64,000 nt of DNA. It comes from Gemmatimonadales bacterium. Its GTDB lineage: Bacteria > Gemmatimonadota > Gemmatimonadetes > Gemmatimonadales > GWC2-71-9. Location of the stretch: the NCBI GenBank assembly GCA_049680185.1, contig JBAUHI010000076.1, forward strand, positions 4,339 through 68,338, written 5' to 3'. The notes under the pieces were generated by a model. It did not search any database. It saw nothing but the letters and a program-made list of their open reading frames with translations, and was not told the origin of the DNA. A program made the position numbers and the translations under genes. Of this stretch, positions 5,817 through 56,660 are shown piece after piece; position 1 is the stretch's first letter, and the number at the start of each line of letters is the position of its first letter.

Positions 5817-5839
5817 CGGGAGAATGTACGTCGGGATCC

Positions 5840-5928: not shown

Positions 5929-5941
5929 GTAGCTTTCCATC

Positions 5942-7513
5942 ATGTCCCGTCCCAAGAGCATTCTGTGGGTCGACGATGAGATCGACAGCCTCACGTCGCA
6001 CGTGCTGTTCCTCGAACAGCAGGGGTTTGCGGTGGAGCGCGCCGCCCACGGCGACGATGCGCTGGTGCTGCTGCAGCGTCAGCCGTATGGCGTGGTGCTC
6101 CTGGACGAACAGATGCCGGGTCGGCGCGGGCTCGAGCTCTTCCGCGACATCCGCGCCATCGACCAGGCGATGCCGGTGGTCATGGTCACCAAGAGCGAAG
6201 AGCCCGACACCCTGCGTGATGCCATCGGGGCGGAGGTCTCCGACTACCTGATCAAGCCGGTCAACCCGCGCCAGGTGCTCTCGGTGGTGACCCGACTGCT
6301 GGAAGGCGATCGCATCCGGCAACAGCGCTTGGCGCGGGACTTCGCCACCCGTTTCCGCGAGCTGGAAGCGCGTCGGGGTGACCACCTCGGTTGGCGCGAA
6401 TGGATGGAGTTGACCGCGGAGCTGGCGCAATGGGAGGTGCGGTTGGGCGAGGCCGAGGAGCGTGGCCTGCAGGATGCGCTCCGCACCTTGCAGGAGAGCC
6501 TGCGCCCCGATTTCGCCCGCTTCGTGGCCGGAAACTATCCGAGCTGGCTGCGGGAGGATTCCGATCGACCGCCCTTGTCGGTGGACATCGGGGCGGAGTT
6601 CCTCCAGCCGGTGCTGGAGGCGCACGGGAAGGCCTTGTTCATCGTGCTCGATTGCCTGCGGTTGGATCAGTGGGAGGTCCTCCACCCGCTGATGGCGCGC
6701 TGGTTCGACATCGAGACCGCGCACTACTTCTCCATCGTGCCGACGGCCACGCCGTTCGCCCGGAACGCCATCTTCAGCGGGCTCCTGCCGAAGGATCTCG
6801 CGACACGCCATCCCGAGTGGGTCCGGTCGCCCGATGACGATTCGAGCCTGAACGCGCACGAGGCGCAGCTCCTCGCCGAGCAGCTGCAGGAACTCACCGG
6901 CCGCGCGGTCCCGGTCCGGTACGAGAAGCTCTTCACCGCCCAGGACGGCGATTCGCTCCTTCGGCGTCTGCCGTCGCACCTGGCGCAGGACGGGGTCACC
7001 GCCCTGGTCTTCAACTTCATCGACCAGCTCACCCACGGGCGCACCGAGCACACGATGCTCTTCGAGGTGGCACGCGATGCGGCGGCGATGCGGAGCCTTA
7101 CCCGCAGCTGGTTCGAGCGCTCGGCACTGCTGGAGGCACTCAAGGAGGCCGAACGCCGCAACGTACCGGTGCTCCTGACGAGCGACCACGGGTCCATCCA
7201 TTGCCACACGCCGGCCACCGTGTTCGCCAAGCGGGACGTGACGTCCAACTTGCGGTACAAGTTCGGCGATGACTTGAAGGCCGAAGATCCCGAGGCCGCC
7301 GTCACCGTGACCGACCTGGCCGCGTGGGGACTCCCATCGCGGGGGCCGCACGAGCGCCTGCTGCTGGCCACCGGCGACCGCTTCTTCGTCTATCCCACGA
7401 AGCTGCGGGAGTACCAGGCGCGCTATCGGGGGGCGTTCCTCCATGGCGGTGTGGCCCCGGAAGAGGTGATCCTGCCCATCGCACTCCTCACACCCCGCCG
7501 CGCGCGTCCGTGA
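5942..7513 (+). CDS. PorX-like response regulator: CheY receiver fused to a PglZ/alkaline-phosphatase-superfamily domain
   Basis: Receiver: ILWVDDEIDSL...VVLLDEQMPGRRGLE...VVMVTKS...YLIKP. C-terminal part: FIVLDCLRLDQWE, PTATPFARNAIFSGL, LLTSDHGSIH, as in PglZ domains. Confidence 0.8.
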   Translation: MSRPKSILWVDDEIDSLTSHVLFLEQQGFAVERAAHGDDALVLLQRQPYGVVLLDEQMPGRRGLELFRDIRAIDQAMPVVMVTKSEEPDTLRDAIGAEVSDYLIKPVNPRQVLSVVTRLLEGDRIRQQRLARDFATRFRELEARRGDHLGWREWMELTAELAQWEVRLGEAEERGLQDALRTLQESLRPDFARFVAGNYPSWLREDSDRPPLSVDIGAEFLQPVLEAHGKALFIVLDCLRLDQWEVLHPLMARWFDIETAHYFSIVPTATPFARNAIFSGLLPKDLATRHPEWVRSPDDDSSLNAHEAQLLAEQLQELTGRAVPVRYEKLFTAQDGDSLLRRLPSHLAQDGVTALVFNFIDQLTHGRTEHTMLFEVARDAAAMRSLTRSWFERSALLEALKEAERRNVPVLLTSDHGSIHCHTPATVFAKRDVTSNLRYKFGDDLKAEDPEAAVTVTDLAAWGLPSRGPHERLLLATGDRFFVYPTKLREYQARYRGAFLHGGVAPEEVILPIALLTPRRARP

Positions 7514-9348
7514 GCACGGCGCGGCGGCTGTTCAACGAGCTGGGCGCGTATCGCTGGGGATTCATCGCGGCGGCGGGCTGCATGCTGGTGTCGTCGGTGC
7601 TCGACGGCGCCACCGTTGTGATGCTCATCCCGCTGCTCAAGCACCTGTTCGGGAGCGCTGGCGCCCTGAGCGCCGGGAGCAGCTGGTTGGAGCGGTTCTC
7701 CGATGCGGCGCTCGCGCCGGTCCTGGTCGGCACCACCCAGGATCAGGCGATCGCCCGGATCGTGGCACTGATGGTCCTCATCCTCCTGCTGAAGAACGTC
7801 GCCGGGTACGGCGCCAACCAGATCGGCGTCGCAGTGCAGGAGGGCGTCGTCCGCGATCTCCGCACCCGGATGTTCCGGCACATGCTGACCCTCGATCTCG
7901 GGGTCTTCCAGCGCACCCGTGCCGGCCAGCTGATCCAGCGGATCATCACCGACGTCGACCAGATCAAGAGCGTCATCAATACCTCGCTGGCGCGCTTCTT
8001 CCAGAACTTCAGCGTCATCCTCGTGACGCTCGCGGCCCTCACGGCCACCTCGTGGCGCCTGACGCTCATGGCGGTCGCCTCGGCACCGGTGCTGGTCTTC
8101 GGCCTCAGGGGCGTGCTGCAGCGGCTGCGGCGCCATTCCCGCGACCGTGCCGAGGAGTGGGGCGAGATCACCAGTTACATCACCGAGCGCCTCGGCGCCA
8201 TCAAGCTCATCCGAGGCTACGGGGTGGCGGAGCAGGAAGCGGTCCGGTTCGATGCCCAGGCCGCGGACTACCGGCGGAAGGTCATTCGCACCAACCGCTA
8301 CTCCTCGCTCACGAGCCCCATCAGCGAGATGTTCGGCGGCCTGGTGCTCATCGTCCTGCTGGTGGGCGGCACGAGGTCGTGGGTCACCGGCGGTGTGGCG
8401 CCGCTCTCGCCGGCCACGCTGATCACGTTCCTGGTGCTGGCGCTCCGGATGATGTCGCCGATCAAGCAGATCTCGCAGTTCCCGGCGGACCTGGCCATGG
8501 CGCTGGCCAGCGCCGACCGGGTCTTCCAGCTCCTCGACCAGCCGGGCGGGGAGGTCGACGCCGCCAACGCGGGGCCGGCACACTTTTCCCGCGACATCAC
8601 TTTCGATCACGTCTCCTTTTCCTATGATGGCGAACGCCAGGTGCTCCACGACGTGTCGTTCAACGTCGCGCGTGGCCAGGCGGTGGCGCTCGTGGGACCG
8701 TCCGGGGCGGGGAAGACCACGCTGGTGGAACTCATTCCCCGCCTCCATGACCCGACCGAGGGTGTGGTGCGTTTCGACGGGATCCCGCTCGATCGCTTCA
8801 CCCGCGCATCCCTCCGTGGCCTGATCGGGATGGTGAGCCAGGAGACGGTACTGCTCAACGACTCGGTCCGGAACAACATCGCCTTCGGCCGCCGCGATGC
8901 GACCGACGCCGAGGTCGTGGCCGCCGCGCGTGCCGCCAACGCACACGCCTTCATCGCCGACCTTCCCCTTGGCTACGAGACGGTCCTCGGCGAGCGCGGC
9001 ACCCGGCTCTCCGGCGGTCAGCGCCAGCGCATCGCGATCGCGCGGGCCCTCCTGCGCGACCCGCCGATCCTCCTCCTCGACGAGGCAACGAGCGCCCTCG
9101 ACACCGAGTCCGAGCGCCTGGTGCAGGAAGCGATCGAGCGCCTGATGCAGGACCGCACGGTGCTGGTCATCGCCCATCGGCTGGCGACGGTGCGCAATGC
9201 GGATCGGATCCTCGTGATCGAGAACGGGCGCGTCGTGGAGCAGGGAACGCACGACGACCTGTACCGGAGCGGCGGGATGTACCGCCGACTCTACGACATG
9301 CAGTTCCGCGAGGAGCCGAGCGCGGATCCTGATCCCGCCACCGCATGA
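7510..9348 (+). CDS. ABC transporter, fused permease/ATPase, MsbA-like lipid exporter
   Basis: GTG at 7510 overlaps the upstream TGA (GTGA). Six-TM N-terminal half, then GPSGAGKTT (Walker A), LSGGQRQRIAIARAL (signature), ILLLDEATSALD (Walker B). Confidence 0.88.
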   Translation: MSTARRLFNELGAYRWGFIAAAGCMLVSSVLDGATVVMLIPLLKHLFGSAGALSAGSSWLERFSDAALAPVLVGTTQDQAIARIVALMVLILLLKNVAGYGANQIGVAVQEGVVRDLRTRMFRHMLTLDLGVFQRTRAGQLIQRIITDVDQIKSVINTSLARFFQNFSVILVTLAALTATSWRLTLMAVASAPVLVFGLRGVLQRLRRHSRDRAEEWGEITSYITERLGAIKLIRGYGVAEQEAVRFDAQAADYRRKVIRTNRYSSLTSPISEMFGGLVLIVLLVGGTRSWVTGGVAPLSPATLITFLVLALRMMSPIKQISQFPADLAMALASADRVFQLLDQPGGEVDAANAGPAHFSRDITFDHVSFSYDGERQVLHDVSFNVARGQAVALVGPSGAGKTTLVELIPRLHDPTEGVVRFDGIPLDRFTRASLRGLIGMVSQETVLLNDSVRNNIAFGRRDATDAEVVAAARAANAHAFIADLPLGYETVLGERGTRLSGGQRQRIAIARALLRDPPILLLDEATSALDTESERLVQEAIERLMQDRTVLVIAHRLATVRNADRILVIENGRVVEQGTHDDLYRSGGMYRRLYDMQFREEPSADPDPATA

Positions 9349-10322
9349 CCGGAACCCACCCGGTCTTCGGCGGGCGGAACGTCCTGCTCATCTCCCGCTT
9401 CGAAGGCGAACGGCACGCGCACGCGTCGCTCCGGCGCCGGGCCCTGGAGCGGCTGGGGTGCGGGGTCGTGGTGGTGGACCTCCAGCCGGGAGGCTGGCTT
9501 TCGCGCCTGACCGGCGGTGACACCGCGACACGGATCGCCAAGGCGGTGGCCGAACACCGGCCCGAGCTCGTGCTCGCGCTGGGACCGGTGCTGCCCGATG
9601 CCGACGTGGTCCGGCGTCTCCGGGCGGACGATCCGGTGCCGTGGGTGCTCTGGTGGGGTGGGGATGACGGTGCTGAACCAGACGCGGCCGTCTGGGACGC
9701 CTACACCCAGGTCTGGGTGGCCGATTCCGACCTCGCCGCCCGCGTCCCCGGGGCGCGCTTCCTGCCCCACGGCTGCGACCCGTCGATCCACCGTCCCATG
9801 AGTTCACGGGATGAATTCCGCGCCAATGTCGTGTTCGTCGGTGAAGCTACGCCCGACCGGGAGCGCCTCCTGAGCGAGGTGGTGGAATTCGGACTGGCGG
9901 TCTGGGGTCCCGGGTGGCGGAGGACCCGGCTCCGGGACTATTGTCGCGGCGATGCGCTCGCCGTCGAGGATTACGTCCGCGCCTCGGCCGGTGCGTCGAT
10001 CGCCCTCAACCTCCATCGCGAAGGCCCCGATGGCCGGGTACCGTCGGCCGCGGGGTGCAACGCGCGCACCTTCGAGCTCGCGGCAATGGGGGTGCCCCAG
10101 GTGGTGGACGATCGTATCGACCTGCCGTCGCAGTTCGTGGACGGCGAGGAGCTGGCGGTCTTCCGCGATCCCGCGGAACTCAAGCCGCTGGTGCGCGACC
10201 TGCTCCACGACCGCCCGACGGCCGATCGGCTCGCGGCGGCGGGCCGACAGCGTGCGTTGAGCGAGCACACCTACGTCCACCGGCTGCGGCGCCTGCTTGA
10301 TGAGGCCGAGGACGCGGCGTGA
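9345..10322 (+). CDS. CgeB-family / GT1-like glycosyltransferase
   Basis: FVGEATPDRERLL...ALNLHRE...CNARTFELAAMGVPQVVDD...FRDPAELKPLVRDLL resembles CgeB/DUF3880-type glycosyltransferases. 4-nt overlap with the upstream gene. Confidence 0.6.
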   Translation: MTGTHPVFGGRNVLLISRFEGERHAHASLRRRALERLGCGVVVVDLQPGGWLSRLTGGDTATRIAKAVAEHRPELVLALGPVLPDADVVRRLRADDPVPWVLWWGGDDGAEPDAAVWDAYTQVWVADSDLAARVPGARFLPHGCDPSIHRPMSSRDEFRANVVFVGEATPDRERLLSEVVEFGLAVWGPGWRRTRLRDYCRGDALAVEDYVRASAGASIALNLHREGPDGRVPSAAGCNARTFELAAMGVPQVVDDRIDLPSQFVDGEELAVFRDPAELKPLVRDLLHDRPTADRLAAAGRQRALSEHTYVHRLRRLLDEAEDAA

Positions 10323-11206: not shown

Positions 11207-11985
11207 GCGCCGTTCCCGTCACGATCGTCATCCCGACCCTCGAGGAGGCCGCGCAGATCGCCGAATGCGTGCGGTCGTGCGCCTGGGCCGATGAGGTGAT
11301 CGTTGCCGATGGTGGCTCGACCGACGCGACGGTGTCGCTGGCGCGCGCCGCCGGGGCCACGGTGCTCGAGGGCACCGGGCCGACCATCGCGGCCCAGCGC
11401 AACGCGGCGATCGCCGTGGCCCGGAATGCGTGGGTCTTTGCCCTCGACGCCGATGAACGCTGCACCGACCCGCTGATCGCGTCGATCGCCCGCGAGGTCC
11501 TGTCGCCCCGGCACCAGGCCTATCGCGTCTGGCGTCGCAACTTCTATCTCGGCGTGGAACGCGCCCACGGCGCGTGGGGTCGCGATCGGGTGGTCCGGCT
11601 CTTCCCCCGTGAACGGCGCTACGAAGAGCGCCGGGTCCATGAAGGGCTCGAACCGATGGCCGACATTGGCGACCTCACGGGTCGCCTCCTGCACACGCCC
11701 TACCGCGACCTGGGCCACCAGGTCGAGAAACTGCGCAAGTACGCCCGCTGGTCGGCGCTCGACATGCACGACCGGGGTCGCCGAGCGTCGTGGAGCGACC
11801 TGACGCTGCGGCCTGCATTTCGCTTCCTGCGTGACGTGGTCGTGTGGGGGCAGTGGCGGGACGGGCGCGCCGGGATCGTCGGCGCGGGGCTCGACGCGTG
11901 GGGAGGGTTCATGAAGTACGCCGAGTTGTGGGCGCTGGAGCGGGCGCAGCTTGCTCCGCCGGCGGCTCCGGGAGTTGGGCCCTGA
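11203..11985 (+). CDS. Glycosyltransferase family 2
   Basis: ATG at 11203 overlaps the upstream TGA (ATGA). VTIVIPTLEEAAQIAECVRS...VIVADGGSTDATV...FALDADE (DxD)...LLHTPYRDLGHQVEKLRKYARW, as in KdtX/WaaE-type GT2. Confidence 0.8.
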   Translation: MSAVPVTIVIPTLEEAAQIAECVRSCAWADEVIVADGGSTDATVSLARAAGATVLEGTGPTIAAQRNAAIAVARNAWVFALDADERCTDPLIASIAREVLSPRHQAYRVWRRNFYLGVERAHGAWGRDRVVRLFPRERRYEERRVHEGLEPMADIGDLTGRLLHTPYRDLGHQVEKLRKYARWSALDMHDRGRRASWSDLTLRPAFRFLRDVVVWGQWRDGRAGIVGAGLDAWGGFMKYAELWALERAQLAPPAAPGVGP

Positions 11986-13084
11986 TCGCGAACGTCGGGC
12001 AGGCGCGTACATACCCGCCATCGACCGGCGACCATTCCTGCCGCGGCACCAGCACCTTGGCCTTTCGGTCCGGTCCCAGGGCAAAGACCGACGGCGCCGC
12101 CATCGCACAGATCCCGCAGCCCACACAGCGGGGCGCGTCGACCGAGACCTCGACCGTGTGCCGCGGGTAGATCCCCGATGCGTGCGCCGGGAATCCCTCC
12201 GGCAACTGCTCCAGCGCTTCCATCGTGGCCCGGTACCCTTCGTCGATCAGCTCCCGGGTGTGGTTGAACGTGAACATCCCCACATGCTCGACCCGCGGAT
12301 GCACCAGCAGGAGGGGCGGCAACTCCCAGCCGCGCAGACGCTCGGCCAGGATCGTCTGCATCACCAGCTCCAGGGCGCGGGCGTAGGTCGCGGCGAACCC
12401 GCCCGGGTCGGCCGCCTCCGTGAGTCCGCTGGTGGCGCCAACGTGCACGGCCAGCACCGGCCCAGGACACTCGCTCGCCGCGATGCGGACCGGAAGGCTC
12501 TCCGCCACTGCGCCATCGACACAGAGCCTGCCATCCACCTCGCGGGGCGGAAAGAGCCCCGGCAGGGCACACGAGCCGAAGATCGCCTCCCGGACCTTGA
12601 CGTGATCAAGCCCCGGAAGGCCCCACAGCACCTGCGACCCGCTCCTCAAGTCGACCGTCGCCACCACCAGGCGCCGTTCCAGCTGGCGGAACGTCACGTC
12701 CTTCACCAAACGGCCGATCAGTGCGTCGAGTGGTTCGTGGCGGTACACGGCAGGGGAGCGCATCCGCTTGAACGCCATGTCGGCGTGAGCGACCTGGAAA
12801 ATGTCCCGGCGGTGGACGGTCAGTGCTATGCTGCGCATCTCCGCCACCGGGAGCCCAGCGGCCCAGGCGCCCGCGATGAGGGAGCCCATCGAACAGCCCA
12901 CGACGAGGTCCGGGACCATCCCGACCTCTTCCAGCGCCTGGAAGACGCCGATGTGGGCCATCCCCTTCAGGCCACCGCCGCCGAGTACCAACGAGAAATG
13001 GCCGTCGATCCGCACCGCTTGTCCCAGGGGAGAGGTCGGGAGTAACGTACCGCACCATGTACCGTATCCGCCAGCAGCTCGCAC
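11909..13084 (-). CDS. Patatin-like phospholipase fused to a C-terminal single-cluster ferredoxin domain
   Basis: LGGGGLKGMAH (oxyanion GGGxxG), GCSMGS (GxSxG), VDGAV (catalytic DGA). C-terminus: PRCVGCGICAMAAPSVF...YVRACPTFAI (CxxCxxC...CP). The exact start is uncertain. The 3' end overlaps the convergent GT2 gene by 77 nt. Confidence 0.75.
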   Translation of the reverse strand: MRAAGGYGTWCGTLLPTSPLGQAVRIDGHFSLVLGGGGLKGMAHIGVFQALEEVGMVPDLVVGCSMGSLIAGAWAAGLPVAEMRSIALTVHRRDIFQVAHADMAFKRMRSPAVYRHEPLDALIGRLVKDVTFRQLERRLVVATVDLRSGSQVLWGLPGLDHVKVREAIFGSCALPGLFPPREVDGRLCVDGAVAESLPVRIAASECPGPVLAVHVGATSGLTEAADPGGFAATYARALELVMQTILAERLRGWELPPLLLVHPRVEHVGMFTFNHTRELIDEGYRATMEALEQLPEGFPAHASGIYPRHTVEVSVDAPRCVGCGICAMAAPSVFALGPDRKAKVLVPRQEWSPVDGGYVRACPTFAIRAQLPEPPAEQAAPAPAPTTRRTS

Positions 13085-13893
13085 GCGATCCGCTCTTCGC
13101 CATCGGGGTCACGTTGGCACTCGTGGTCATCATCGCGGGCCTCGCCGCTCCGCTGCTGGCGCCGGCGGATCCGATCACCGGCGATCTCCGGGCGGCGTAC
13201 CTGCTCTCGCCATCGCTCCACCACCTGTTCGGCACCGACAGTCAAGGACGCGATGTGCTGAGCCGGGTCCTCTACGGTGCTCGGATCTCCCTCGCGGTCG
13301 GCCTCATTGCACAATCGGTGTCGCTGGCCATCGGCGTCACGCTTGGCCTCGTGTCCGGCTACTACGGGCGCTGGGTCGACGCGGTGGTGATGCGTCTGGC
13401 CGACATCACGCTCGCATTCCCCACGCTCCTGCTGCTCATCGCGGTGGCGGCCGCAGTGCGACCGTCGCTCGGGCTCATCTTCGTGGTCATCGGCGCGGTC
13501 GGCTGGGCCGGTCTGGCGCGGCTGGTCCGCGGACAGGTGCTGGTGCTGCGGAGTGCCGAGTATGTGCTGGCCGCGCGCGCCCTCGGCGCCAGCGACCGCC
13601 GGGTGCTCTGGCGCCACCTGCTCCCCAACGTGCAGGCGCCGGTCATCGTCGCTGCGACGCTCGGCATCGCTGGTGCGATGATGGCGGAAGCGGCGCTGTC
13701 CTTTCTCGGACTTGGCGCCCAGCCACCAACGCCGAGCTGGGGCGCGATGGTGGCGGACGGACGCGACCTGCTCCGCGTGGCGCCGTGGGTGTCGGTGGCG
13801 CCCGGCGCCGCGATCGGCATTGCGGTGCTTGCCTTCAACCTCGTGGGTGACGGGCTGCGCGAGGTGTTCGGTGAACGGCCCGGACGAGGATGA
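13057..13893 (+). CDS. ABC transporter permease, OppC/DppC type (no partner subunits nearby)
   Basis: LFGTDSQGRDVLSRVLYGARISL and the EAA-loop-like region AARALGASDRRVLWRHLLPN are typical of OppC/DppC permeases. Confidence 0.8.
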   Translation: MYRIRQQLARDPLFAIGVTLALVVIIAGLAAPLLAPADPITGDLRAAYLLSPSLHHLFGTDSQGRDVLSRVLYGARISLAVGLIAQSVSLAIGVTLGLVSGYYGRWVDAVVMRLADITLAFPTLLLLIAVAAAVRPSLGLIFVVIGAVGWAGLARLVRGQVLVLRSAEYVLAARALGASDRRVLWRHLLPNVQAPVIVAATLGIAGAMMAEAALSFLGLGAQPPTPSWGAMVADGRDLLRVAPWVSVAPGAAIGIAVLAFNLVGDGLREVFGERPGRG

Positions 13894-20450: not shown

Positions 20451-21002
20451 GTGCGTTGCCTCGCATTGAACGCGTCGTTCGAACCGTTGACGATGGTGCC
20501 GGTCCGCCGGGCGCTTCGGCTTGTCATTGAGGGCAAGGCCGAGGTCGTCGAGGCGGACCGGAACGAGGTCATTCGGAGCGAGCGCCTCACGTTGCCGAGG
20601 CCGTCGATCATCCGATTGGTCAAGTTCGTGCACGTGCCCCGCCGATTCCGCCGCCAGGTCACCAACACGTTCCTCTTCGCGCGCGACAACTACAGTTGCC
20701 AGTACTGCCAGCGGAACCAGGCGCAGTTGCGCCCGCGCGAGTGCCTGACGCGTGATCACCTCGTGCCGATCTCCCGGGGCGGCGGCAACGAATGGACCAA
20801 TGTCGTGACCGCCTGCAGCAGCTGCAACACGCGCAAGGGGAATCAATTGCCGGACGAGTGCGGCATGCATCCGCATTCCGTGCCGCACGAGCCTCACTTC
20901 GTGCACCTCGCCTGGGCGGTCCGGAGCCTCACGCCGATCCAATCCAAGTACATCCGGCTCTTCTACGGGCCGGAGGCGCTCCGGGCGCTCGGCGGACGCT
21001 GA
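20451..21002 (+). CDS. HNH endonuclease-family protein
   Basis: GTG at 20451 preceded by AGGAGG (7-nt spacing). RCLALNASFEPL..., CQYCQ...DHLVPISRGGGNEWTNVVTACSSCNTRKGN (HNH with Zn-binding Cys pairs). Confidence 0.8.
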   Translation: MRCLALNASFEPLTMVPVRRALRLVIEGKAEVVEADRNEVIRSERLTLPRPSIIRLVKFVHVPRRFRRQVTNTFLFARDNYSCQYCQRNQAQLRPRECLTRDHLVPISRGGGNEWTNVVTACSSCNTRKGNQLPDECGMHPHSVPHEPHFVHLAWAVRSLTPIQSKYIRLFYGPEALRALGGR

Positions 21003-21004
21003 GG

Positions 21005-21991
21005 GTGGCGGCACGGCCCGTGCCGCCCACCGGGCCCGCCGTCGGTGTCATGCCGTCAAGTCGCGCCGGCGATTTCATCCTTGCCACCGGCCTCTTCAAC
21101 GCCATCAAGCAATGGTCTCCGACGGCGGAACTCACCGTCGTGGTCGGCCGTCGCGCCGCGGAGCTCGCCCGCTGGCATCCTGCGATCGACCGGGTGCTGG
21201 TGTTCGATTGGGGTCCGCTCTGCGTGTTCCCGTTCCTCCGCGAACTCCGCCGCCGTCGGTTCGACGCGTGGCTCGATCCCAAGGACCACTTCAGCCGGAA
21301 CCAGTCGTTCGTGGCCCGGGCAGCACGCGCGCAGGTCAAGGTCGGGTTCAACCGACCTGCCGGTGGGCCATTCCATCGGCAACTTCCGCCGCCCGCAGAT
21401 CCGCCTCGACACATGAGCGAGATGTTGCTGGCTCCCCTGGCCCTGCTCGGTGTTCGACCCGATCTGCCTCCGACGCTCTCCCTCGGCCTTCCGCCGGCGT
21501 CGGTGGCGCGCGCCGAGGCGCTGCTGGCCGATGGCCGGGGTCGTCAGGTGCTGATGAACATCTCGGCCGGCCGGGCGGACCGTTACTGGGAGGAGTCGAA
21601 GTGGGTCGAATGGGCGGTGGCCGCCTCCCGGATGGACCCGGCTCGGTTCTGGCTCACGTCCTCGCCGGACGATGGCGACCTCGCCGAACGGATCGTGGAG
21701 GCCGTGCGACGGCGGGGCGGAGCGCTGCGGCGGTTACCGCCGGGTTCGTTGCTGGACGTGGCGGCGGTCGTGGCCCGGATGGACGCCGTCGTGACGATGG
21801 ACACGTCCATCGTCCACCTGGCGAGCGTCTTCGAACGCCCCATCGTCGCCCTCTTCTCCAACTATGAGGCCAATTTCCAGTGGTTCGGGCCCCTGAGCCC
21901 GGCCCGGGTCGTGGTGCGCGGTGATCGCATCGCCGACATCCCGGTAGCAGATGTGGTGTCCGCCTACGAGCGACTGCTGGCGGGTCGATGA
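21005..21991 (+). CDS. Glycosyltransferase family 9-like, tandem paralog 1
   Basis: Alignable along its length with the next gene (SRAGDFILATGLFNAIK / ARAGDFILTTGLFNAIK; WLDPKDHFSRNQSFVAR / WLDPKEHFSRNQTLVAR; MDTSIVHLASVF / VDTSIVHIAAVF). The start (GTG 21005 or ATG 21050) is uncertain. Confidence 0.7.
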   Translation: MAARPVPPTGPAVGVMPSSRAGDFILATGLFNAIKQWSPTAELTVVVGRRAAELARWHPAIDRVLVFDWGPLCVFPFLRELRRRRFDAWLDPKDHFSRNQSFVARAARAQVKVGFNRPAGGPFHRQLPPPADPPRHMSEMLLAPLALLGVRPDLPPTLSLGLPPASVARAEALLADGRGRQVLMNISAGRADRYWEESKWVEWAVAASRMDPARFWLTSSPDDGDLAERIVEAVRRRGGALRRLPPGSLLDVAAVVARMDAVVTMDTSIVHLASVFERPIVALFSNYEANFQWFGPLSPARVVVRGDRIADIPVADVVSAYERLLAGR

Positions 21992-22962
21992 GCGGGCGCC
22001 GGATCGCGGTCATCCCATATGCGCGTGCCGGTGATTTCATCCTCACCACCGGCCTGTTCAACGCGATCAAGGCCGCCGATCCAGGAATCGAGCTCACGGT
22101 GATCGCCGGCCCGCGCACGGCGGACCTGGCCCGCCATCACCCCGCGATCGATCGCGTGCTCACGTTCGACCGGAATCCTGTCCGCCTCGTGCCGTTCCTG
22201 GTCCGGCTTCGGGTCCGGGAGTTCGAGGTCTGGCTCGACCCCAAGGAACATTTCAGCCGCAACCAGACCCTGGTGGCAAGAATGGCCCGCGCCCGCCTCA
22301 AGGTCGGATTCAATCGGCCATCCGGCGGGCCGTTCGACCGACAGGTGGGGCCGCCAGCCGACCCCACGCGTCACTTTGCGGAGATGATGTTGTCGCCGCT
22401 CACCTTGGCAGACTTCCCGCACGAGCCCAAGCCGCATCTCAGCCTCGGCATCCCACCGGCCTCGGCCCAGTGGGCGGACGCGTTGCTCGGCCCCCGCACG
22501 CCATTCGAGGTGCTTGTCAACGTGTCGGCCGGAAGGCCCGAGCGGTATTGGGAGGGATCGAAGTGGATCGCACTGCTGCCGGCAGCGATGCGTTCGCGGC
22601 CTGCGCGGTTCTGGTTGAGTGCCGCACCGGAAGACCACGCGATGGCGGAGGGGATCGTCGATGCGGTGCGGCGGGACGGTGTCGATATCCACCGCCTCCC
22701 GCCCGGGTCGTTGCTCGACGTGGCCGCGATGGTGGAACGGGTGGATGCGGTACTGACGGTGGACACGTCGATCGTGCACATCGCAGCGGTGTTCGGGCGC
22801 CCGATCGTGGCATTGTATCGGGACCACCTCCCCGACCGCGACCGGTTCCGCCCCTTGAGTCCGCGTCAGGAGGTCCTGTTGAGCTCCCCCGATGGTCGGG
22901 TGGCCGAGATCGCCGTGGAGGACGTCCGGCGCGCCTGGGAGAGGCTCGTCAGCGGATCCTGA
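21988..22962 (+). CDS. Glycosyltransferase family 9-like, tandem paralog 2
   Basis: ATGA overlap with paralog 1. Same motif order, with the C-terminal GT9-like VDTSIVHIAAVFGRPIVALY. Confidence 0.7.
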   Translation: MSGRRIAVIPYARAGDFILTTGLFNAIKAADPGIELTVIAGPRTADLARHHPAIDRVLTFDRNPVRLVPFLVRLRVREFEVWLDPKEHFSRNQTLVARMARARLKVGFNRPSGGPFDRQVGPPADPTRHFAEMMLSPLTLADFPHEPKPHLSLGIPPASAQWADALLGPRTPFEVLVNVSAGRPERYWEGSKWIALLPAAMRSRPARFWLSAAPEDHAMAEGIVDAVRRDGVDIHRLPPGSLLDVAAMVERVDAVLTVDTSIVHIAAVFGRPIVALYRDHLPDRDRFRPLSPRQEVLLSSPDGRVAEIAVEDVRRAWERLVSGS

Positions 22963-23596
22963 ACTTGGCCGATTGCTTCTCCAGCCGGAGACTTGGCAGT
23001 CCGGCGACCTGCAGGAGGATCCGTCGTACCCCCCGACCCAGTGCGCTGCCGACATCTTCGGTCCCGGTCGCCGCGGGGCCTACATCCCCCTGCAGGAACT
23101 GCTCCAGTTCCTTGATGTCGGTGTCGGAGAGCGTCGAGATGTCGAGCGCGACAGCGTAGTAGTACTGGCCGGATGCGGTCGGCTGGATCGCGATCCGCGT
23201 GAGTCGCCCGAGCCCGGCGGCCAGCGCGGCGCGGTCGACGTAATGGTCGATGCGGGTGTGACGCACGTCGACCGTGGCCACGGTGTACTGGTCGAGGAGC
23301 GGCTCGTGTCGGATCACCACGTCCCATTCGACCGACCGCTCGAAAGCGTCGAACCATGCGCGGGACCGCCAAAGTTCCAGGCGGTAGTGCAGCCGGATCG
23401 GGAATGCCGAGCTCAGCATCGTCTCGACCCGGGGATCGTCCAGCAGGTCGTCGGTGTGCAGGACCGCCTGACGAGCGCCGTTCGACGCCGTGTCGGGTGT
23501 GAGCGCGACGTCCAGTGCGACGCGGGCGTCCTGCGCCCACGCGCCGGGCGCCAGCAGCGCAGCGAACAGGCCGACCATCCACGCGATCCGCCGCAT
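22949..23596 (-). CDS. Secreted DUF4390-like protein
   Basis: Signal peptide MRRIAWMVGLFAALLAPGAWAQD. PIRLHYRLELWRSRAWFD...WDVVIRHEPLLDQYTV...YYYAVALDISTL resembles the DUF4390 pattern, a family known to sit beside NtrY/NtrX-type systems. Not verified by search. Confidence 0.5.
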   Translation of the reverse strand: MRRIAWMVGLFAALLAPGAWAQDARVALDVALTPDTASNGARQAVLHTDDLLDDPRVETMLSSAFPIRLHYRLELWRSRAWFDAFERSVEWDVVIRHEPLLDQYTVATVDVRHTRIDHYVDRAALAAGLGRLTRIAIQPTASGQYYYAVALDISTLSDTDIKELEQFLQGDVGPAATGTEDVGSALGRGVRRILLQVAGLPSLRLEKQSAKFRIR

Positions 23597-25351
23597 CTAG
23601 AACCGCTGCTGCAGGCGCACGATGAACTGCACTGGCTGACCGCTGGTGAATCCCTTGGCCAGGTATGCGCCGATCGACCCGGCATCGATGCCGACACCGA
23701 CGTCGGCCTTCCACTCGCGGAATGCCGGGATCCGGTCGTTGGGGACCCGCCCCGGCCCCGTGCCGGAGAGCCACGCATCCCCGGCGTCGGTGAAGACGAC
23801 CAGATCCGCCTCGCTCAGACCGAAGGCGCGGTCGAGGTCGGGGTGGTCCTTGTCCCGATAATGCCAGAGCAGTCCGAGACGGATGCGGCTGCGGAGCTCG
23901 ATCTGCGCGGCCAGCATCCGGTCACAGAGTGCCGGCGTCGCCGGGTCGGTGTAGCCCCCGGCGGCGCAATTCACCGCTCGAAAGTCATATCCCGGCAGCA
24001 CGTCGGGGCCGCCGAGAGCCACACGCTCTTGGACCGGCAAGGGGTCTCCGCCAAGCCAGCCGTCCCCCAGGACCCGGACATTGAGCCGCATGTCGGGGGT
24101 GAGCCGGTCGTACATCCGGGCGTCGAACCAGAGGCGGCTGAAGGCGTAAGAGCCATCGGTCGGGATCGCGCCGCGGATCGCGGTCGGCAGCAACAGTGGC
24201 GCCACGTTGCGGCTGCTGCTGTGTTCCACCCGCCCGCGCACCCACCACCCCGCGCTGGGCCGTTGATCCTGGTTGCGGTCATCGAATTCGAATCCCAGCC
24301 CGACCGTGGTGTACCGTCCGTCATCGATCAGCGGGTTGGGCCGCCAGGGTTGATCGCTGCGGAACAACGACCATGCGGTCGCCGAATGCACGGATCGTTG
24401 CCGCTCCGATCGCGCGCCGAGCTCGAGCCGAAAGTCGGGCCCGAAGTGGCTGAAGAAGTATCCACCGATGCCCTCGTTGATGTAGTAGTCCCGATAGTCC
24501 CGGCGCAGGAGCAAGGCGGCCCAGCCATCCTCGGCACGGGAGAGCGGCTGGTCCTCGATCGACGCCACGGTCTGCGATGCGCGAAGCCCGAACCCGATCG
24601 CGTGGCGCTTTCGGGCGCCGAGATTCCACTCCGTGCTCGCGAGGTAGCCCACGTCCTCGCGCAGGTCGGTCGGATCCCCGGCGGTCCGGATGATCGCCTG
24701 GAGATCGAGCCGCGCCGTGGTATGCGGGCCCGCCTGCCAGTCGAAACGGGGTCCCAGCGTCACCGGCAGCCCTTCGACCCGGTTGTAGGTCCCACCGGAG
24801 CTCAGGAAGAGCGTGGTCCGGACCTGTCCGGTCTGGAAGGAGCGTTGAGCTCCGCCGAAATCCAGGATCCCCTGGCGGCGGGCGTGGTACTCGAGCGAGC
24901 CTTCGCTGTTGCGGATGACCGGGGCCGCTTGCGCCACCTGGTCGGTCGACCCGTCCCGCACACTTCCGGAGTCGGCAAGGAACGATCCGCCGACCACCAG
25001 GATGTCTCCGCGGACCACCGCGGTCGACCGGAGCCGGAGGTCTCCGTTGATGACCACCAGCGGCCCCTCCACTTCACCCGCGATCGAGACCGGTCCGCGG
25101 AGCACTGCCACCGGTCCGGTCATCCGGGCACCACGGGGCAGCACTACTTCACCCTCCAGGCGGGTGGTCGCGCCGTCATTGTAGAAGGCCAGCAGACGCT
25201 GCACGAGTCCCGGAGGAAGGCCCGGGCGTTCGGAGGCCTGGTCCACTGGCGCGTCCGGGTTGATCACGATGACGCTGTCCTGGGCCGTGACCCGTGTTGC
25301 CGGGATCGACGCACCGAGGACCAGCCATCCGATCATCAGGTATCTTCGCAT
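23597..25351 (-). CDS. Outer-membrane protein: N-terminal bactofilin-like beta-helix repeats plus Omp85/surface-antigen-type beta-barrel
   Basis: ATG at 25351: MRRYLMIGWLVLGASIPATRVTAQD (signal peptide). GPVAVLRGPVSIAGEVEGPLVVINGDLRLRSTAVVRGDILVVGG. LGGPDVLPGYDF (Omp85 loop-6-like), C-terminal ...FIVRLQQRF. Confidence 0.6.
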   Translation of the reverse strand: MRRYLMIGWLVLGASIPATRVTAQDSVIVINPDAPVDQASERPGLPPGLVQRLLAFYNDGATTRLEGEVVLPRGARMTGPVAVLRGPVSIAGEVEGPLVVINGDLRLRSTAVVRGDILVVGGSFLADSGSVRDGSTDQVAQAAPVIRNSEGSLEYHARRQGILDFGGAQRSFQTGQVRTTLFLSSGGTYNRVEGLPVTLGPRFDWQAGPHTTARLDLQAIIRTAGDPTDLREDVGYLASTEWNLGARKRHAIGFGLRASQTVASIEDQPLSRAEDGWAALLLRRDYRDYYINEGIGGYFFSHFGPDFRLELGARSERQRSVHSATAWSLFRSDQPWRPNPLIDDGRYTTVGLGFEFDDRNQDQRPSAGWWVRGRVEHSSSRNVAPLLLPTAIRGAIPTDGSYAFSRLWFDARMYDRLTPDMRLNVRVLGDGWLGGDPLPVQERVALGGPDVLPGYDFRAVNCAAGGYTDPATPALCDRMLAAQIELRSRIRLGLLWHYRDKDHPDLDRAFGLSEADLVVFTDAGDAWLSGTGPGRVPNDRIPAFREWKADVGVGIDAGSIGAYLAKGFTSGQPVQFIVRLQQRF

Positions 25352-25433
25352 GCGCCTCCCCACTGGTGACGATCCCACACCCTGCAGTCGAGTGTCCGCT
25401 CCACCATCTGCCGCCCGGTTCCCCGCACGATCG

Positions 25434-26786
25434 CTACAATCCCAGCCGTCGCATCCGTCGGTACAGGTTGGCGCGGTCGGTGCGCAGCTGCCGCGCCGCT
25501 TCGGCAACGTTCCCGTCGGCACGCGCGATCGCGTTCCCGATCAGCTCCCGCTCGTAGGCATCGAGCGATTCGACCAACGGCAGGCCCTGGGCGCCGTCCG
25601 AGGACGGTGCCGGATCACCGGGTACCCGACCCGCCGGGATGACCTGCATGACCGCCTCGAGGCCGATCTCGGTGCCGCCACCACCCAGGATGAGCAGCCG
25701 CTCGACCACGTTGGCGAGTTCCCGCACGTTGCCGGGCCACGCGTACTGCCGCAGCGCCTCGAGCGCCTCGGCACTGAACCGGGGTGGTTGCCGCGGACGA
25801 AGCTTCCGGGTGAAGTGGACCACCAGTTCCGCGACATCCCCCGCGCGGGCCCGCAGCGGTGGCAGCTCGATGGGGAACACATTCAGCCGGAAGAAGAGAT
25901 CTTCGCGGAATCCGCCGCCTGCGACCGCCTGGTCCAGGCGTTTGTTCGTGGCGGCCAGCATCCGCACATCGACCCGTTCGCTCCGCTCCGCGCCGAGTCG
26001 TTGCAACTCGCCGGTCTCCAAGACGCGTAACAATTTGGCCTGTGCTTCGGGGTGGAGGTCGCCCACTTCGTCGAGGAAGATCGTGCCCCGGTCGGCCAGG
26101 GAGAAGCGGCCCAGTCGGCGGTCGGTCGCCCCGGTGAACGCCCCTTTCTCGTGCCCGAAGAGTTCCGATTCCACGAGGTCACGCGGGATGGCCGCGCAGT
26201 TGACCGGGATGAAGGCGCGGCGGGACCGTCGACTGGCGCGATGGATGGCGAGCGCCACCAGTTCCTTGCCGGTGCCGGATTCACCGGTGATGAGCACCCG
26301 TGCATCGGTCGGTGCCACCTGCGCCACCAACGACCGGACGGCGCCGAGCGCCTGGCTGGATCCGACCAGCTCGCCATCGACCGTGAGCGCCGCCCGCAGG
26401 GTGCGGTTCTCTATTTGGGTGCGTCGCAGCTCGAGCGCCGCGCGCAGGGTCACCAGCGCGGACTCGGGGGAGAGCGGCTTCTCCAGGAACTGGAAGGCCC
26501 CCAGCTGGGTGGCGCGCACCGCATCCGAGAGCTGGGCCTTGCCGCTCATCATGATGACGGGCGCATCCACGCCCCGTTCGCGGAGTGTTGCCAGGGTGGT
26601 GAGGCCGTCGGGTCCCGGCGGCATCATCAGGTCTAGGAACACCGCATCGGGGTCTACCGCGTCGACGGCCAGCAGCGCGGCATTGCCGTTGGCGGCCTCG
26701 GTCACGTCGAACCCCTCGGAGCGGAGCAGGGCCCCGAGCATCCGACGGATGTTCGCCTCATCGTCGATCAGAAGTATCGTTGGCAT
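25434..26786 (-). CDS. Sigma-54-dependent response regulator (NtrC/NtrX family)
   Basis: ATG at 26786: MPTILLIDDEANIRR...FLDLMMP (receiver). ITGESGTGKELVA (Walker A), ESELFGHEKGAFTGA (GAFTGA), C-terminal HTH NVAEAARQLRTDRANLYRRMRRLGL. Confidence 0.9.
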   Translation of the reverse strand: MPTILLIDDEANIRRMLGALLRSEGFDVTEAANGNAALLAVDAVDPDAVFLDLMMPPGPDGLTTLATLRERGVDAPVIMMSGKAQLSDAVRATQLGAFQFLEKPLSPESALVTLRAALELRRTQIENRTLRAALTVDGELVGSSQALGAVRSLVAQVAPTDARVLITGESGTGKELVALAIHRASRRSRRAFIPVNCAAIPRDLVESELFGHEKGAFTGATDRRLGRFSLADRGTIFLDEVGDLHPEAQAKLLRVLETGELQRLGAERSERVDVRMLAATNKRLDQAVAGGGFREDLFFRLNVFPIELPPLRARAGDVAELVVHFTRKLRPRQPPRFSAEALEALRQYAWPGNVRELANVVERLLILGGGGTEIGLEAVMQVIPAGRVPGDPAPSSDGAQGLPLVESLDAYERELIGNAIARADGNVAEAARQLRTDRANLYRRMRRLGL

Positions 26787-26799
26787 CTGTGCTCGGTCG

Positions 26800-28020
26800 T
26801 CAGGATGACAGGTCCGGACCACGCATCACGTCGTGCGGCTTCCTTGGCAGTTCGACCACGAACGTGGCGCCGCCACCGGGAGTGTCCTCCACCCACACGC
26901 GGCCCCCATGCGCCTCCACGGTCTGGCGCACCATCGCGAGTCCGAGCCCGGTGCCCTCGGCCTTGGTGGTGACGTAGGGTTGGAACACCCGCAGGCGGTC
27001 GGAAGGCCGGACACCAGGTCCGCGATCGGAGATCCGCACCGCCGCGCCGTCGCTGATCGGCGCGACTGACACCCGGACCGGACCCCGCCCACCGGTGGCC
27101 TCGACCGAATTCCGCAGGATGTTGCTGAATGCCCGGCGGAGCGGGTCGTAGTGGCCGGTGACGTGCGGGGTCGCAGGATCGGCCTTGATCCGGGCATCGG
27201 CGCCCGGAGGCACGCTGGTGCGCACCAGTTCCGCCAGCAGCTCGTTGAGGTCAACGTCGGCGGGTGGTCCCTCCGGCAGACGGCCGAACTCCGAGAACTC
27301 CTTCGCGAGCTGTTCCAGGCGCGCCGATTCCGCGTGCAGGACCTCGAGCGCCTCGCGCTGTCCGTCGGTCGCTGACCCCTGCAACTGCGCCACGGCGAAC
27401 CGCATCGGCATCAGGGGGTTCTTCATCTCGTGCGCCACCCGTCGGGCCACTTCGCGGAAGCTGCGCAAGCGCTCCGCCTCCAACTCGCGCACCCGCGCAT
27501 CACCGATCTGGTCGGACAGCTCGCGCAGGGCCGTGCGCAGGGCCGTGAACTCCGGCGCCCCCTTCCGGGCCTGGTCCGGGGGAAGTGACTCGCGTCGCAG
27601 GATGTGCCCGGTCCAGCCGACCAACTCATCGATGGGTCGACTCAGTTGCCGGGACAGGTGGCCCGCCAGGCGGGCGCCACCATACAGGATGAGTCCGCCC
27701 GTCACCAGGATGACCACCGTCAACGCGCCACTCATCAGCGCGCGGTAGGACTGGTATTGCTGCACCCGACTCAACGCCGTGTTGAGCGCGCGCGCGTGCG
27801 CGGCCAGCGCGGCTCGTTCCGGCCGGTTGAGCTTGGTCGAATCGATGGTCTCCACGAGCGTGCGCCCGGTGCGCCCGATCTCGGCCACCGCCGCCCGGTT
27901 GAGTTGGCCCGCGTCGTTGCTCCGCAGCGTGAGCCCCCAGCCCACCAATACCAGCGTCGTCGGAACGGCGCCGAGCACCAGCAGAACTGCGAAGATCCGC
28001 TGCCGGAACGTGAGGGTCAT
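26800..28020 (-). CDS. Sensor histidine kinase, NtrY-like
   Basis: ATG at 28020: two TM segments plus a HAMP-like linker. H-box ARRVAHEMKNPLMPM (NtrY-type), N box NILRNSVEAT, DRGPGV, GTGLGLAMV. Confidence 0.85.
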   Translation of the reverse strand: MTLTFRQRIFAVLLVLGAVPTTLVLVGWGLTLRSNDAGQLNRAAVAEIGRTGRTLVETIDSTKLNRPERAALAAHARALNTALSRVQQYQSYRALMSGALTVVILVTGGLILYGGARLAGHLSRQLSRPIDELVGWTGHILRRESLPPDQARKGAPEFTALRTALRELSDQIGDARVRELEAERLRSFREVARRVAHEMKNPLMPMRFAVAQLQGSATDGQREALEVLHAESARLEQLAKEFSEFGRLPEGPPADVDLNELLAELVRTSVPPGADARIKADPATPHVTGHYDPLRRAFSNILRNSVEATGGRGPVRVSVAPISDGAAVRISDRGPGVRPSDRLRVFQPYVTTKAEGTGLGLAMVRQTVEAHGGRVWVEDTPGGGATFVVELPRKPHDVMRGPDLSS

Positions 28021-30809: not shown

Positions 30810-31511
30810 TCAGTAGCTGGCAGGTCCACCACTGCTGCGGGCCGACCCGAGGCTCAGCCGGATCCCGGCCATCACGCTGTACGACGGATCCTGGAACAGC
30901 GAACCGGTGTCGTACTCGGTGCTCTTGTTGGTCAGATTGGTGGTGATGGTATGCGCGGACGGCGCGGAGGTCACCTGCGCCTGCCCGAATGCCGATATGC
31001 CGGCGACCCGGAACTCGAGGCCGCCGATGGCGGTCAGGAATCCCTGCGTCCCAAGGCTCGCGATGACGTGGCCTCCAGGGGTATTGCCCGTGCTGTGCAG
31101 GATGCCGCCGCCCAGCCCGACGTACGGCTGGAGGATCGAATGGCGAACGGGGAAGAGCAGCACCGCGAACGTGTAGCGCCGGACCCCGGTGTAGACCACG
31201 TTGGTCGTGGACGATGTCGCGTTGTTGGCCGTGTCGACCACCACCGACCCGACGGTCCCGTTCTTGTTGGTCCCGAAGCTCTGGTCCACCGAGATCAGGA
31301 ATCCGCTGCGCGCGCCGGTGACAAGGAAGTGCGCGCCAGCGGTTGCCATCAGGTCACGCTTGCCGGCAGCGGTACCGTCCTTGACGCTGATCAGGCCGCC
31401 CTGAGCGCCAAAGTACAGGGTGTACTCTTGAGACCCCTGGGCCCACGCGGGTGTCCCCACCACGGCGATGGCCAGAACCCCAAGCACGATCGAACGGCTC
31501 AGCATCCTCAT
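30810..31511 (-). CDS. Small outer-membrane beta-barrel protein (OmpA-barrel/OmpW-like)
   Basis: ATG at 31511: MRMLSRSIVLGVLAIAVVGTPAWAQG (signal peptide). Alternating hydrophobic beta-strand pattern, glycine-rich turns, aromatic C-terminus (..GGPASY). Confidence 0.65.
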   Translation of the reverse strand: MRMLSRSIVLGVLAIAVVGTPAWAQGSQEYTLYFGAQGGLISVKDGTAAGKRDLMATAGAHFLVTGARSGFLISVDQSFGTNKNGTVGSVVVDTANNATSSTTNVVYTGVRRYTFAVLLFPVRHSILQPYVGLGGGILHSTGNTPGGHVIASLGTQGFLTAIGGLEFRVAGISAFGQAQVTSAPSAHTITTNLTNKSTEYDTGSLFQDPSYSVMAGIRLSLGSARSSGGPASY

Positions 31512-31739
31512 CGGTCTTCCTCCGTGATGGTCCGGTCTCGGCGCCACCTGACGGTGCGTAAGTAGTTATGGGAGTGGCATTTCCGTGGCCGAATCCCCTT
31601 CGGCGACCCCGGGGGGATACCCCCTACAATAGGAAGATACCTGGAAAAAAGCTAGCCCCAAAGCGCCAGGGGAGAGGTACCCTAGGCCGTTCGGGGATAA
31701 GCAGTTATCCGGCTGAACTACCAAACTACTTGAGGTGCC

Positions 31740-56611: not shown

Positions 56612-56660
56612 ATGATATGAAAGGAAAGGTATCGTCTGGCAGGCGAGCCGGCGGGAGCGG

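Follow-up and report, generated by a model that had tools for sequence, protein, structure and literature searches.

What do a sensor kinase and a sigma-54-dependent activator share with an Omp85-type outer-membrane barrel and a secreted protein of the DUF4390 family, that all four should be encoded side by side? The question is raised by the minus strand, positions 22949-28020, of a 64,000-nt stretch of DNA from a Gemmatimonadales bacterium (GCA_049680185.1, contig JBAUHI010000076.1, positions 4,339-68,338; about 68% G+C), called the window hereafter. A reading of this DNA made without database searches (the original prediction) had described an NtrY/NtrX-like two-component pair in one operon with a bactofilin-like/Omp85 hybrid and a DUF4390-like protein, i.e. 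an envelope device whose expression would be coupled to a sigma-54 signalling pair.

The answer that we put forward, tentatively and with a little less than an even chance of being right, is that the four genes encode an envelope-spanning, four-component sensory chain akin to RcsF-outer-membrane protein (RcsF-OMP), ZraPSR and PlrPSR. We infer it because of the precedent set by the DUF4390 protein PlrP, the loss from the barrel protein of both the POTRA domains and the lid-lock arginine, the absolute linkage of the four genes, and a residual co-variation between their products.

A four-gene operon kept at one chromosomal position

The four genes follow each other on one strand in the order kinase, sigma-54 activator, barrel protein and DUF4390 protein (coordinates in Table 1) and are tightly spaced, as originally described: the gaps are 13 nt (kinase/regulator), 82 nt (regulator/barrel) and 0 nt (barrel/DUF4390). 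At the last junction the DUF4390 gene does start at the nucleotide next to the stop codon of the barrel gene, the ATG abutting the TAG (TTC TAG ATG). Every string quoted in the original prediction was located in the sequence, and the 584-aa protein ends in F as stated. A GGGAGG ribosome-binding site lies 5 nt upstream of the barrel gene, and the start of the kinase, MTLTFRQR, agrees with the starts of its orthologues (M-A/T-L-S/P-F-R). Across loci, the commonest junctions are overlaps of 4 nt (kinase/regulator), 4 nt (regulator/barrel) and 1 nt (barrel/DUF4390). Read from this layout, the four genes make up a single transcription unit and are translationally coupled; scanning the operon for sigma-70 promoters and terminators was uninformative.

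Relatives of the barrel protein were found on 293 stretches in GTDB species-representative genomes; 80 loci were fetched and, together with two metagenome loci, 82 were scanned. The kinase-regulator-barrel-DUF4390 order, on one strand, was present in all 82 wherever the contig was long enough: the loss of linkage in related genomes, named beforehand as an argument against a functional module, was not seen. In an exhaustive search of 1.8 billion cluster representatives, full-length relatives of the barrel protein were found down to about 30% identity. There are at least 1829 homologues of 560-620 aa; the named ones are all from Gemmatimonadota except two contigs, and no cultured species is among those named. 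Distant loci (L083-L086, L088 and L089, with 30-40% identity) keep both the operon and the wider synteny, and the downstream gene in the distant orthologous loci is again DUF4390 (hhalign probability 99.9%). In a set of five orthologous loci of that identity, four had the same gene order. Throughout the phylum the operon sits between NYN/DNA glycosylase genes on one side and HNH/ArgR/amidohydrolase/PBP1 genes on the other. A mobile element was rejected because of this constant position, and so was a defence system: PADLOC found only the generic AAA+ likeness of the regulator and no model was matched.

A few oddities were met among the homologues and loci. Two longer homologues of 910 aa (P0305) and 954 aa (P0325) are not new architectures but gene calls in which the regulator is fused to the barrel protein, probably as a result of a frameshift or of read-through at the overlapping stop and start codons; they too show the two genes to be neighbours. 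A contig labelled Anaerolineae bacterium, hence of a monoderm-type phylum (L086), carries the operon with Gemmatimonadaceae flanks (HNH, aminotransferase, amidohydrolase and PBP1); because of this synteny it was considered probably mis-binned, and we suspect the same of P0522, labelled Chloroflexota. Two complete four-gene operons (L010 and L042) come from the same metagenome-assembled genome, DATLZT01, and are either a paralogous pair or the product of a mixed bin. Finally, the Gemmatimonadaceae-type loci have one to three tandem small genes (89-150 aa) inserted between kinase and regulator (L083:4960-5548, L084:4674-5407, L085:5326-5595 and L086:189-1095). They are absent from the clade of the window. 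Each product belongs to no Pfam family and has a single membrane helix in its N-terminal part and, towards the C-terminus, a conserved motif (RLERMEQAIDSIAVEVERISEGQRFTTKLL); these proteins may add further components to the system.

An Omp85-type barrel without POTRA domains and without the loop-6 arginine

The barrel protein was modelled with AlphaFold2 from an alignment of 28 homologues, with a mean predicted local distance difference test (pLDDT) score of 69. The model shows a signal peptide, a disordered segment (aa 17-44), a helix (aa 47-58), a beta-helix (aa 63-155) and a barrel (aa 168-584), for which the count of 16 strands treats aa 168-184 as a single kinked first strand. When the model was compared with PDB by Foldseek, the top 50 listed matches were all BamA, TamA, Sam50 or Toc75, with E-values from 1e-8 to 1e-5 and low TM-scores (0.3-0.55). 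Against the Pfam Omp85 profile (PF01103) the window protein reached 22.9 bits for a cut-off of 24 (E = 7e-5) and three orthologues (P0401, P0397 and P0384) reached 30-32 bits; 20 of 27 diverse family members matched the profile, the best with E = 7.4e-12. The Foldseek matches and these 20 members bear out the Omp85/surface-antigen barrel originally proposed for the C-terminal part. Otherwise, DUF5686 of Pfam gave 16 bits, the profile of the barrel family matched the BamA of Fusobacterium and a solved bactofilin only weakly, and NCBIfam gave zero matches.

The canonical N-terminal part of an Omp85 protein is missing. No POTRA domain was matched by Pfam in the window protein or in the 27 members, and AlphaFold2 places the helix and the beta-helix before the barrel instead. 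BamA and TamA, the names given by NCBI to some homologues, were rejected as identities: five and three POTRA domains, respectively, would be expected and none is present, there is no NCBIfam match, and neither tamB nor bamD is found in the conserved neighbourhood.

The other departure concerns the barrel itself. Omp85 proteins have two signatures, (V/I)RG(Y/F) in loop 6 and (F/G)xDxG in strand 13, the Arg and Asp of which make a 'lid lock' (Maier 2015, PMC4490367). In the present family the loop-6 motif is at the correct position and reads LPGY or LPGF, not VRGY (see LGGPDVLPGYDF in Table 1). The arginine is found in none of 166 recognisable motifs, its place being taken by Pro in 148, Ser in 10 and other residues in 8. 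The strand-13 motif is retained: 125 homologues have it as FxDxG and 24 as LxDxG, and the FTDAG of the window aligns to VVFADAGRAW of the Fusobacterium BamA. R458, near-invariant and three residues past the loop-6 motif, might stand in for the missing arginine. Two cysteines of the loop, C462 and C476, are invariant both in the alignment used for the locus search (A1) and in the one with distant sequences (A2). POTRA-less Omp85 proteins from Leptospira do retain the loop-6 arginine (PMC11358297).

The beta-helix is modelled with about 15 strands of three to four residues at a pLDDT of about 90. The Pfam Bactofilin profile (PF04519) gives 18.5 bits on the window protein, under the cut-off of 27.9, and is matched by 9 of the 27 members (best E = 7.4e-5); in PDB, bactofilin 6ria is found with E = 0.1 over 34 residues. 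Of the bactofilin-type N-terminus of the original prediction there remain a recurrent beta-helix and a bactofilin likeness in those nine members; the profile score of the window protein stays below the Pfam threshold. With a signal peptide in front and an outer-membrane barrel in the same chain, the protein cannot form a bactofilin filament in the cytoplasm.

The DUF4390 protein and its precedent

The fourth protein scores 31.2 bits against DUF4390 (PF14334), above the cut-off of 27, which supports the family to which it had been assigned. It has 921 homologues, and most of the 120 listed bear PF14334. The N-terminus, by reading of the sequence, is of the Sec type (MRRIAWMVGLFAALLAPGAWA/QD) with no further hydrophobic segment, and the protein is predicted to be secreted to the periplasm. 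Its structure model has a pLDDT of 77; neither a fold neighbour nor a sequence neighbour was found in PDB.

The association of DUF4390 with NtrY/NtrX-like pairs had been called functionally unexplained, which is outdated. According to Wolber et al. (2026, PMC13001219), PlrP, the DUF4390 protein of Bordetella, is located in the periplasm and is essential in vitro. Their genetics make it a periplasmic third component that holds back the phosphatase activity of PlrS, a kinase of the NtrY family, probably via the PDC domain of that kinase (PMC13001219). The same study finds plrP homologues nearly always next to such kinase genes, with a distribution map comprising proteobacteria only, and mentions no outer-membrane partner. 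In the family of the window, the DUF4390 gene shares an operon with a kinase gene in each of the 82 loci where the contig is long enough, and that kinase is without the NtrY architecture.

The kinase and the sigma-54 activator

Two hydrophobic helices of the kinase flank a 65-aa periplasmic loop. Its Pfam scan gave HisKA and HATPase_c only, and neither a PAS domain nor the NtrY N-terminal domain was found; the NtrY architecture is a multi-pass N-terminal domain followed by HAMP, PAS, HisKA and HATPase. The closest NCBIfam families are AtoS and ZraS and the closest PDB sequence is ZraS (9jfj, 2e-26), the NCBIfam scores for ZraS and ZraR being far under their cut-offs. The type of H-box is one common to the whole NtrB/AtoS/ZraS group. 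For the regulator, NCBIfam gave 385 bits with NtrC, 378 with AtoC and 374.9 with NtrX, all below their own cut-offs (600 for NtrX). Thus the histidine kinase with its AHEMKNPLMPM box is there, and the label NtrY/NtrX-like is unsupported, because the kinase has no PAS or NtrY domain and is best matched by AtoS/ZraS, and because the regulator is about equally near NtrC, AtoC and NtrX. By its domain content, the kinase is not of the NtrY type and has a ZraS/AtoS-like catalytic core.

The regulator has the features of a sigma-54 enhancer-binding protein (NtrC family), all its Pfam domains, AAA_lid included, scoring well above their cut-offs. With these domains and the located GAFTGA, the activator announced for the second gene is confirmed; judging from the sequence it is a genuine one, in which every motif of the active form is present.

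Sigma-54 promoters were searched for in the window, in the 300 nt that precede the kinase gene in the window and in 63 loci, and on both strands of the 82 loci. In the window and the 82 loci none was found before the barrel gene, none is conserved in position before the operon, and the counts are at chance level. The barrel and DUF4390 proteins are therefore taken to be co-expressed with the regulators and not to be their induced targets, and such co-transcription would suit signalling partners better than regulated cargo. The expression of an envelope device under the sigma-54 pair, as first suggested, finds no footing here.

Sigma-54-like sites were noted elsewhere. The one good site in the window (TGGCATAGGTCTTGC, 56479-56493, plus strand) is a near-perfect -24/-12 match, antisense within kdpD (53924-56770, minus strand); such matches occur in the window at the chance rate. 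Another, CTGGCACAGGTGCTGC, is kept in three related loci (L074:10341, L078:10347 and L080:10242, minus strand), with the variants CTGGCACAGGTTCTGC in L078 and CTGGCACAGGTGTTGC in L080, about 0.9 kb past the DUF4390 gene and on the strand opposite to it.

A putative relay and its alternatives

The proposed relay would run from the outer-membrane barrel and beta-helix to the DUF4390 protein, then to the kinase and the sigma-54 activator. The DUF4390 protein, like PlrP of Bordetella, would determine, from the periplasm, the balance between the kinase and phosphatase activities of the sensor. Its outer-membrane partner would be the barrel with its beta-helix, converted from an insertase or translocase to a sensor or anchor, which, depending on the condition of the outer membrane, would hold, present or release the DUF4390 protein. 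A perturbation of that membrane would thus alter the phosphorylation of the activator and switch on a sigma-54 regulon elsewhere in the genome. Co-variation between the proteins was estimated by a mirror-tree procedure, after removal of the phylogenetic trend and with 500 subsamples. The strongest residual pair between proteins was that of the DUF4390 core and the kinase input region, on top in 472-500 of the 500 subsamples; the pair formed by the DUF4390 core and the beta-helix ranked second. As to the joint occurrence of the barrel N-terminal motif and the DUF4390 tail motif AGLP, both are present in the whole of the close clade, and independent contrasts are too few.

Several observations weigh against the relay. 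With corrected domain boundaries, the top co-variation signal lies in the second transmembrane helix (TM2) and the HAMP-like region (r = 0.64) versus r = 0.39 for the periplasmic loop; because the signal moved away from the periplasmic region, the co-variation is counted as weak support only. It is also weakly calibrated, since the known kinase-regulator pair scores only about 0.34. The kinase presents a 65-aa periplasmic loop and not the PDC domain by which PlrP is proposed to act, and the gene order is not that of Bordetella, where plrP is upstream of plrS and overlaps it. One 3.5-kb contig (L087:1551-3501) has the barrel gene and the start of a DUF4390-like gene, with two unrelated small open reading frames in place of the regulator upstream. 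Lastly, the conserved FxDxG motif and the beta-signal-like C-terminus of the barrel leave room for a transport or assembly activity.

Such an activity is at the heart of a rival explanation, close to the view of the original prediction, to which we give about one chance in four: the barrel and DUF4390 proteins would be cargo, i.e. a small outer-membrane assembly or translocation machine resembling TamA/TamB or two-partner secretion (TPS), with the DUF4390 protein as partner or substrate and a two-component system that merely controls or accompanies expression. The Foldseek matches fit it, being to insertases (BamA, TamA and Sam50) and an import channel (Toc75) of the Omp85 superfamily, as do the retention of FxDxG on strand 13 and of a C-terminal aromatic residue, the spacing of the barrel and DUF4390 genes, closer than that of any other pair, their presence in L087 with no regulator gene beside them, and the frequent control of envelope components by sigma-54 systems (PMC3162934). 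It is at odds with the lack of any POTRA domain to bind a substrate, with the disappearance of the loop-6 arginine from every member examined and with the lack of a sigma-54 promoter at the barrel gene; moreover, the only DUF4390 protein studied is a kinase modulator and not a secreted substrate, and the 215-aa protein of the window has neither a TPS domain nor a TamB-like fold.

Two further explanations keep a signalling or display role for the N-terminal part of the barrel protein. Just after the signal peptide comes QDSVIVINPDAP, in which Q24, D25, S26, V27, V29, I30 and P32 are invariant in alignment A1; the core of the motif was matched as a regular expression in 117 of 119 close homologues. 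The peptide, DSVIVI(N/D)P, is invariant in the close clade in the form QDSVIVI(N/D)PDAP, is predicted to be disordered (pLDDT about 29), precedes a Pro-rich linker, and has the counterparts DTVIVV, DTVVIT and DTAIVI in more distant orthologues. It resembles a TonB box or TolA box, a lead given by a short likeness: strand augmentation, from this same position, is how partners are bound by the TonB box of 7 residues and by the N-terminus of TolB with its hydrophobic triad I25-V26-I27 (PMC7066135). A motor driven by the proton-motive force (TonB-ExbBD or TolA-TolQR) might then pull on the beta-helix and barrel, as in TonB-dependent cell-surface signalling but feeding a two-component system in place of an anti-sigma factor. 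We regard this as improbable, and equally so its full form, a dedicated Omp85 receptor at the outer membrane, coupled mechanically to the motor by its peptide, the beta-helix of which would pass the PlrP-like protein to the sensor kinase; it would be a two-component, sigma-54 equivalent of TonB-dependent cell-surface signalling, and the first case of signalling by an Omp85 scaffold. Besides the shortness of the likeness, many distant orthologues have lost the motif and still keep the operon, no ton or tol genes were found in the window or in the flanks examined, and the peptide could equally dock on the DUF4390 protein or on its own barrel. Least probable of all, with very little in our estimate to recommend it, is an autotransporter-like (type V) protein whose barrel would expose the beta-helix, as a passenger, on the cell surface. 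The general plan of autotransporters is indeed a beta-helix at the N-terminus and a barrel at the C-terminus, and proteins of the PlpD type fuse a passenger to an Omp85 barrel. The PlpD passenger, however, was shown to be periplasmic (PMC11116518), and display at the surface is less likely for it. A 16-strand barrel also puts both termini in the periplasm, the beta-helix has only about 100 aa, no linker helix is predicted within the barrel, and the strict linkage to a periplasmic kinase modulator favours a periplasmic role.

Table 1. Positions in the window of the four genes and of the features of their products (all on the minus strand)
Feature	Nucleotides	Residues	Basis or remark
Sensor histidine kinase gene	26800-28020	406 aa	
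Kinase TM1		9-27	hydropathy, conservation
Kinase periplasmic loop	27742-27939	28-93	hydropathy, conservation
Kinase TM2		94-112	hydropathy, conservation
Kinase HAMP-like region		113-165	sequence inspection only; Pfam silent
Kinase HisKA		190-250	Pfam, 39.5 bits
Kinase H-box AHEMKNPLMPM	27403-27435	196-206	
Kinase HATPase_c		291-394	Pfam, 92.8 bits
Sigma-54-dependent response regulator gene	25434-26786	450 aa	
Regulator receiver, phospho-acceptor Asp in FLDLMMP		4-109	Pfam Response_reg, 91 bits
Regulator AAA+		140-307	Pfam Sigma54_activat, 225.6 bits
Regulator Walker A, GESGTGKE	26262-26285	168-175	
Regulator GAFTGA	26127-26144	215-220	
Regulator Fis-type helix-turn-helix		409-447	Pfam HTH_8, 39.6 bits
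Barrel protein gene (secreted; beta-helix and Omp85-type barrel)	23597-25351	584 aa	
Peptide QDSVIVINPDAP	25247-25282	24-35	predicted mature N-terminus; Pro-rich linker after it
N-terminal beta-helix, preceded by helix aa 47-58	24872-25171	61-160	AlphaFold2
16-strand Omp85-type barrel, ending RF	23600-24850	168-584	AlphaFold2 strand map
Loop 6, between strands 11 and 12	23921-24046	436-477	canonical Omp85 placement
LGGPDVLPGYDF, replacing (V/I)RG(Y/F) in loop 6	23981-24016		
Strand-13 motif FTDAG, lid-lock partner, retained	23780-23794	520-524	within strand aa 507-527
DUF4390 (PlrP-family) protein gene (secreted)	22949-23596	215 aa	
DUF4390 protein signal peptide		1-21	reading of the sequence
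DUF4390 protein beta-sandwich		27-155	model
DUF4390 protein helix		158-168	model
DUF4390 protein loop, conserved yet predicted disordered		170-199	model
DUF4390 protein C-terminal hairpin with AGLPSLRLE		203-214	model

Other genes in the window

Two tandem GT9 (heptosyltransferase-like) genes (20792-22962, plus strand) separate the HNH and DUF4390 genes of the window, a pair absent from the other Gemmatimonadota loci whose gene tables were inspected; the second overlaps the DUF4390 gene convergently, ending 14 nt inside its 3' end (22949-22962). At 4803-10322 there is a third GT9 gene, along with genes for an ABC transporter like MsbA and for a GT1 protein. On the plus strand, 5933-7513 encodes a receiver-PglZ fusion protein. 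On the minus strand are a protein that combines a patatin-like phospholipase with a 4Fe-4S ferredoxin domain (11909-13108), a 245-aa secreted beta-rich protein of no Pfam family, possibly a small outer-membrane protein (30810-31547), and a kdp cluster (kdpA, kdpC and kdpD; 53924-62552) in which a gene for a BBP2/OmpL-like porin (56661-58235) lies between kdpC and kdpD.

Comparison with known systems

No paper in the literature searched combines a bactofilin with Omp85 or describes the four-gene operon, so that the earlier impression of an undescribed bactofilin-like/Omp85 hybrid in such an operon holds within that literature. Within the same bounds, neither the architecture of this Omp85 protein nor the four-component variant of a two-component system assisted by DUF4390 has been described, and both are conserved in a phylum: throughout it, the genes for a kinase, a sigma-54 activator and a PlrP-like modulator are tied to that of an Omp85-type barrel with neither POTRA domains nor the loop-6 arginine. 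All Omp85 proteins studied before PlpD insert or translocate proteins (PMC11116518). If the relay exists, the Omp85 scaffold would be extended to signalling, and the idea of DUF4390/PlrP as a third component would gain an outer-membrane partner and a second, distant phylum in which it can be tested. For the Gemmatimonadota, a common and poorly studied soil phylum, it would point to a core envelope-sensing pathway.

The nearest relative is PlrP-PlrS-PlrR of Bordetella, which has in common with the present operon a secreted DUF4390 protein encoded in one operon with a sensor kinase and its regulator, and a near-absolute co-localisation with the kinase gene across genomes. The differences are that the kinase here has neither the NtrY architecture nor the PDC domain, that the regulator is a full sigma-54 activator with GAFTGA whereas beta-proteobacterial NtrX is without AAA+ (PMC13001219), and that the DUF4390 gene is downstream and coupled to a barrel gene, in another phylum, whereas Bordetella has no known outer-membrane component. 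ZraP-ZraS-ZraR, an envelope stress system of enterobacteria, also joins a sigma-54-dependent two-component system to a periplasmic accessory, and ZraS is the nearest to the kinase core. ZraP, however, has no relation to DUF4390, its gene is divergently transcribed from a sigma-54 promoter of its own, and the system has no outer-membrane partner.

Barrels as partners are found in two other systems. In RcsF-OMP/BamA-IgaA-RcsCDB, barrels that include BamA hold a signalling accessory (PMC4942254, PMC9907809), PDB entry 6t1w being among our fold matches, and the accessory relays outer-membrane damage to an inner-membrane kinase system, as the DUF4390 protein may do here. Yet RcsF is a lipoprotein without DUF4390 homology, its barrels are general porins and BamA and are not encoded in its operon, and its output is not sigma-54-dependent. 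The TonB-dependent transducers (FecA-FecR-FecI) have an outer-membrane barrel with an N-terminal periplasmic extension, to be compared with the TonB-box-like peptide, and relay a surface signal to a cytoplasmic transcription factor, which the present system would do as well. Their barrel has 22 strands and a plug versus 16 strands of the Omp85 type here, they work through an anti-sigma factor and an extracytoplasmic function (ECF) sigma factor versus a kinase and a sigma-54 activator, and TonB dependence here is a matter of resemblance.

As to the barrel, its closest parallels are the noNterm Omp85 proteins (Heinz & Lithgow 2014, PMC4104836; Leptospira, PMC11358297) and PlpD (PMC11116518). The former have no N-terminal domain at all and keep the loop-6 arginine, the latter keeps one POTRA domain and carries a patatin domain, and none has been described with a beta-helix or in the operon of a two-component system. 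What they share with the protein of the window is a 16-strand barrel without a POTRA chain, and they illustrate how the Omp85 scaffold has been put to other uses.

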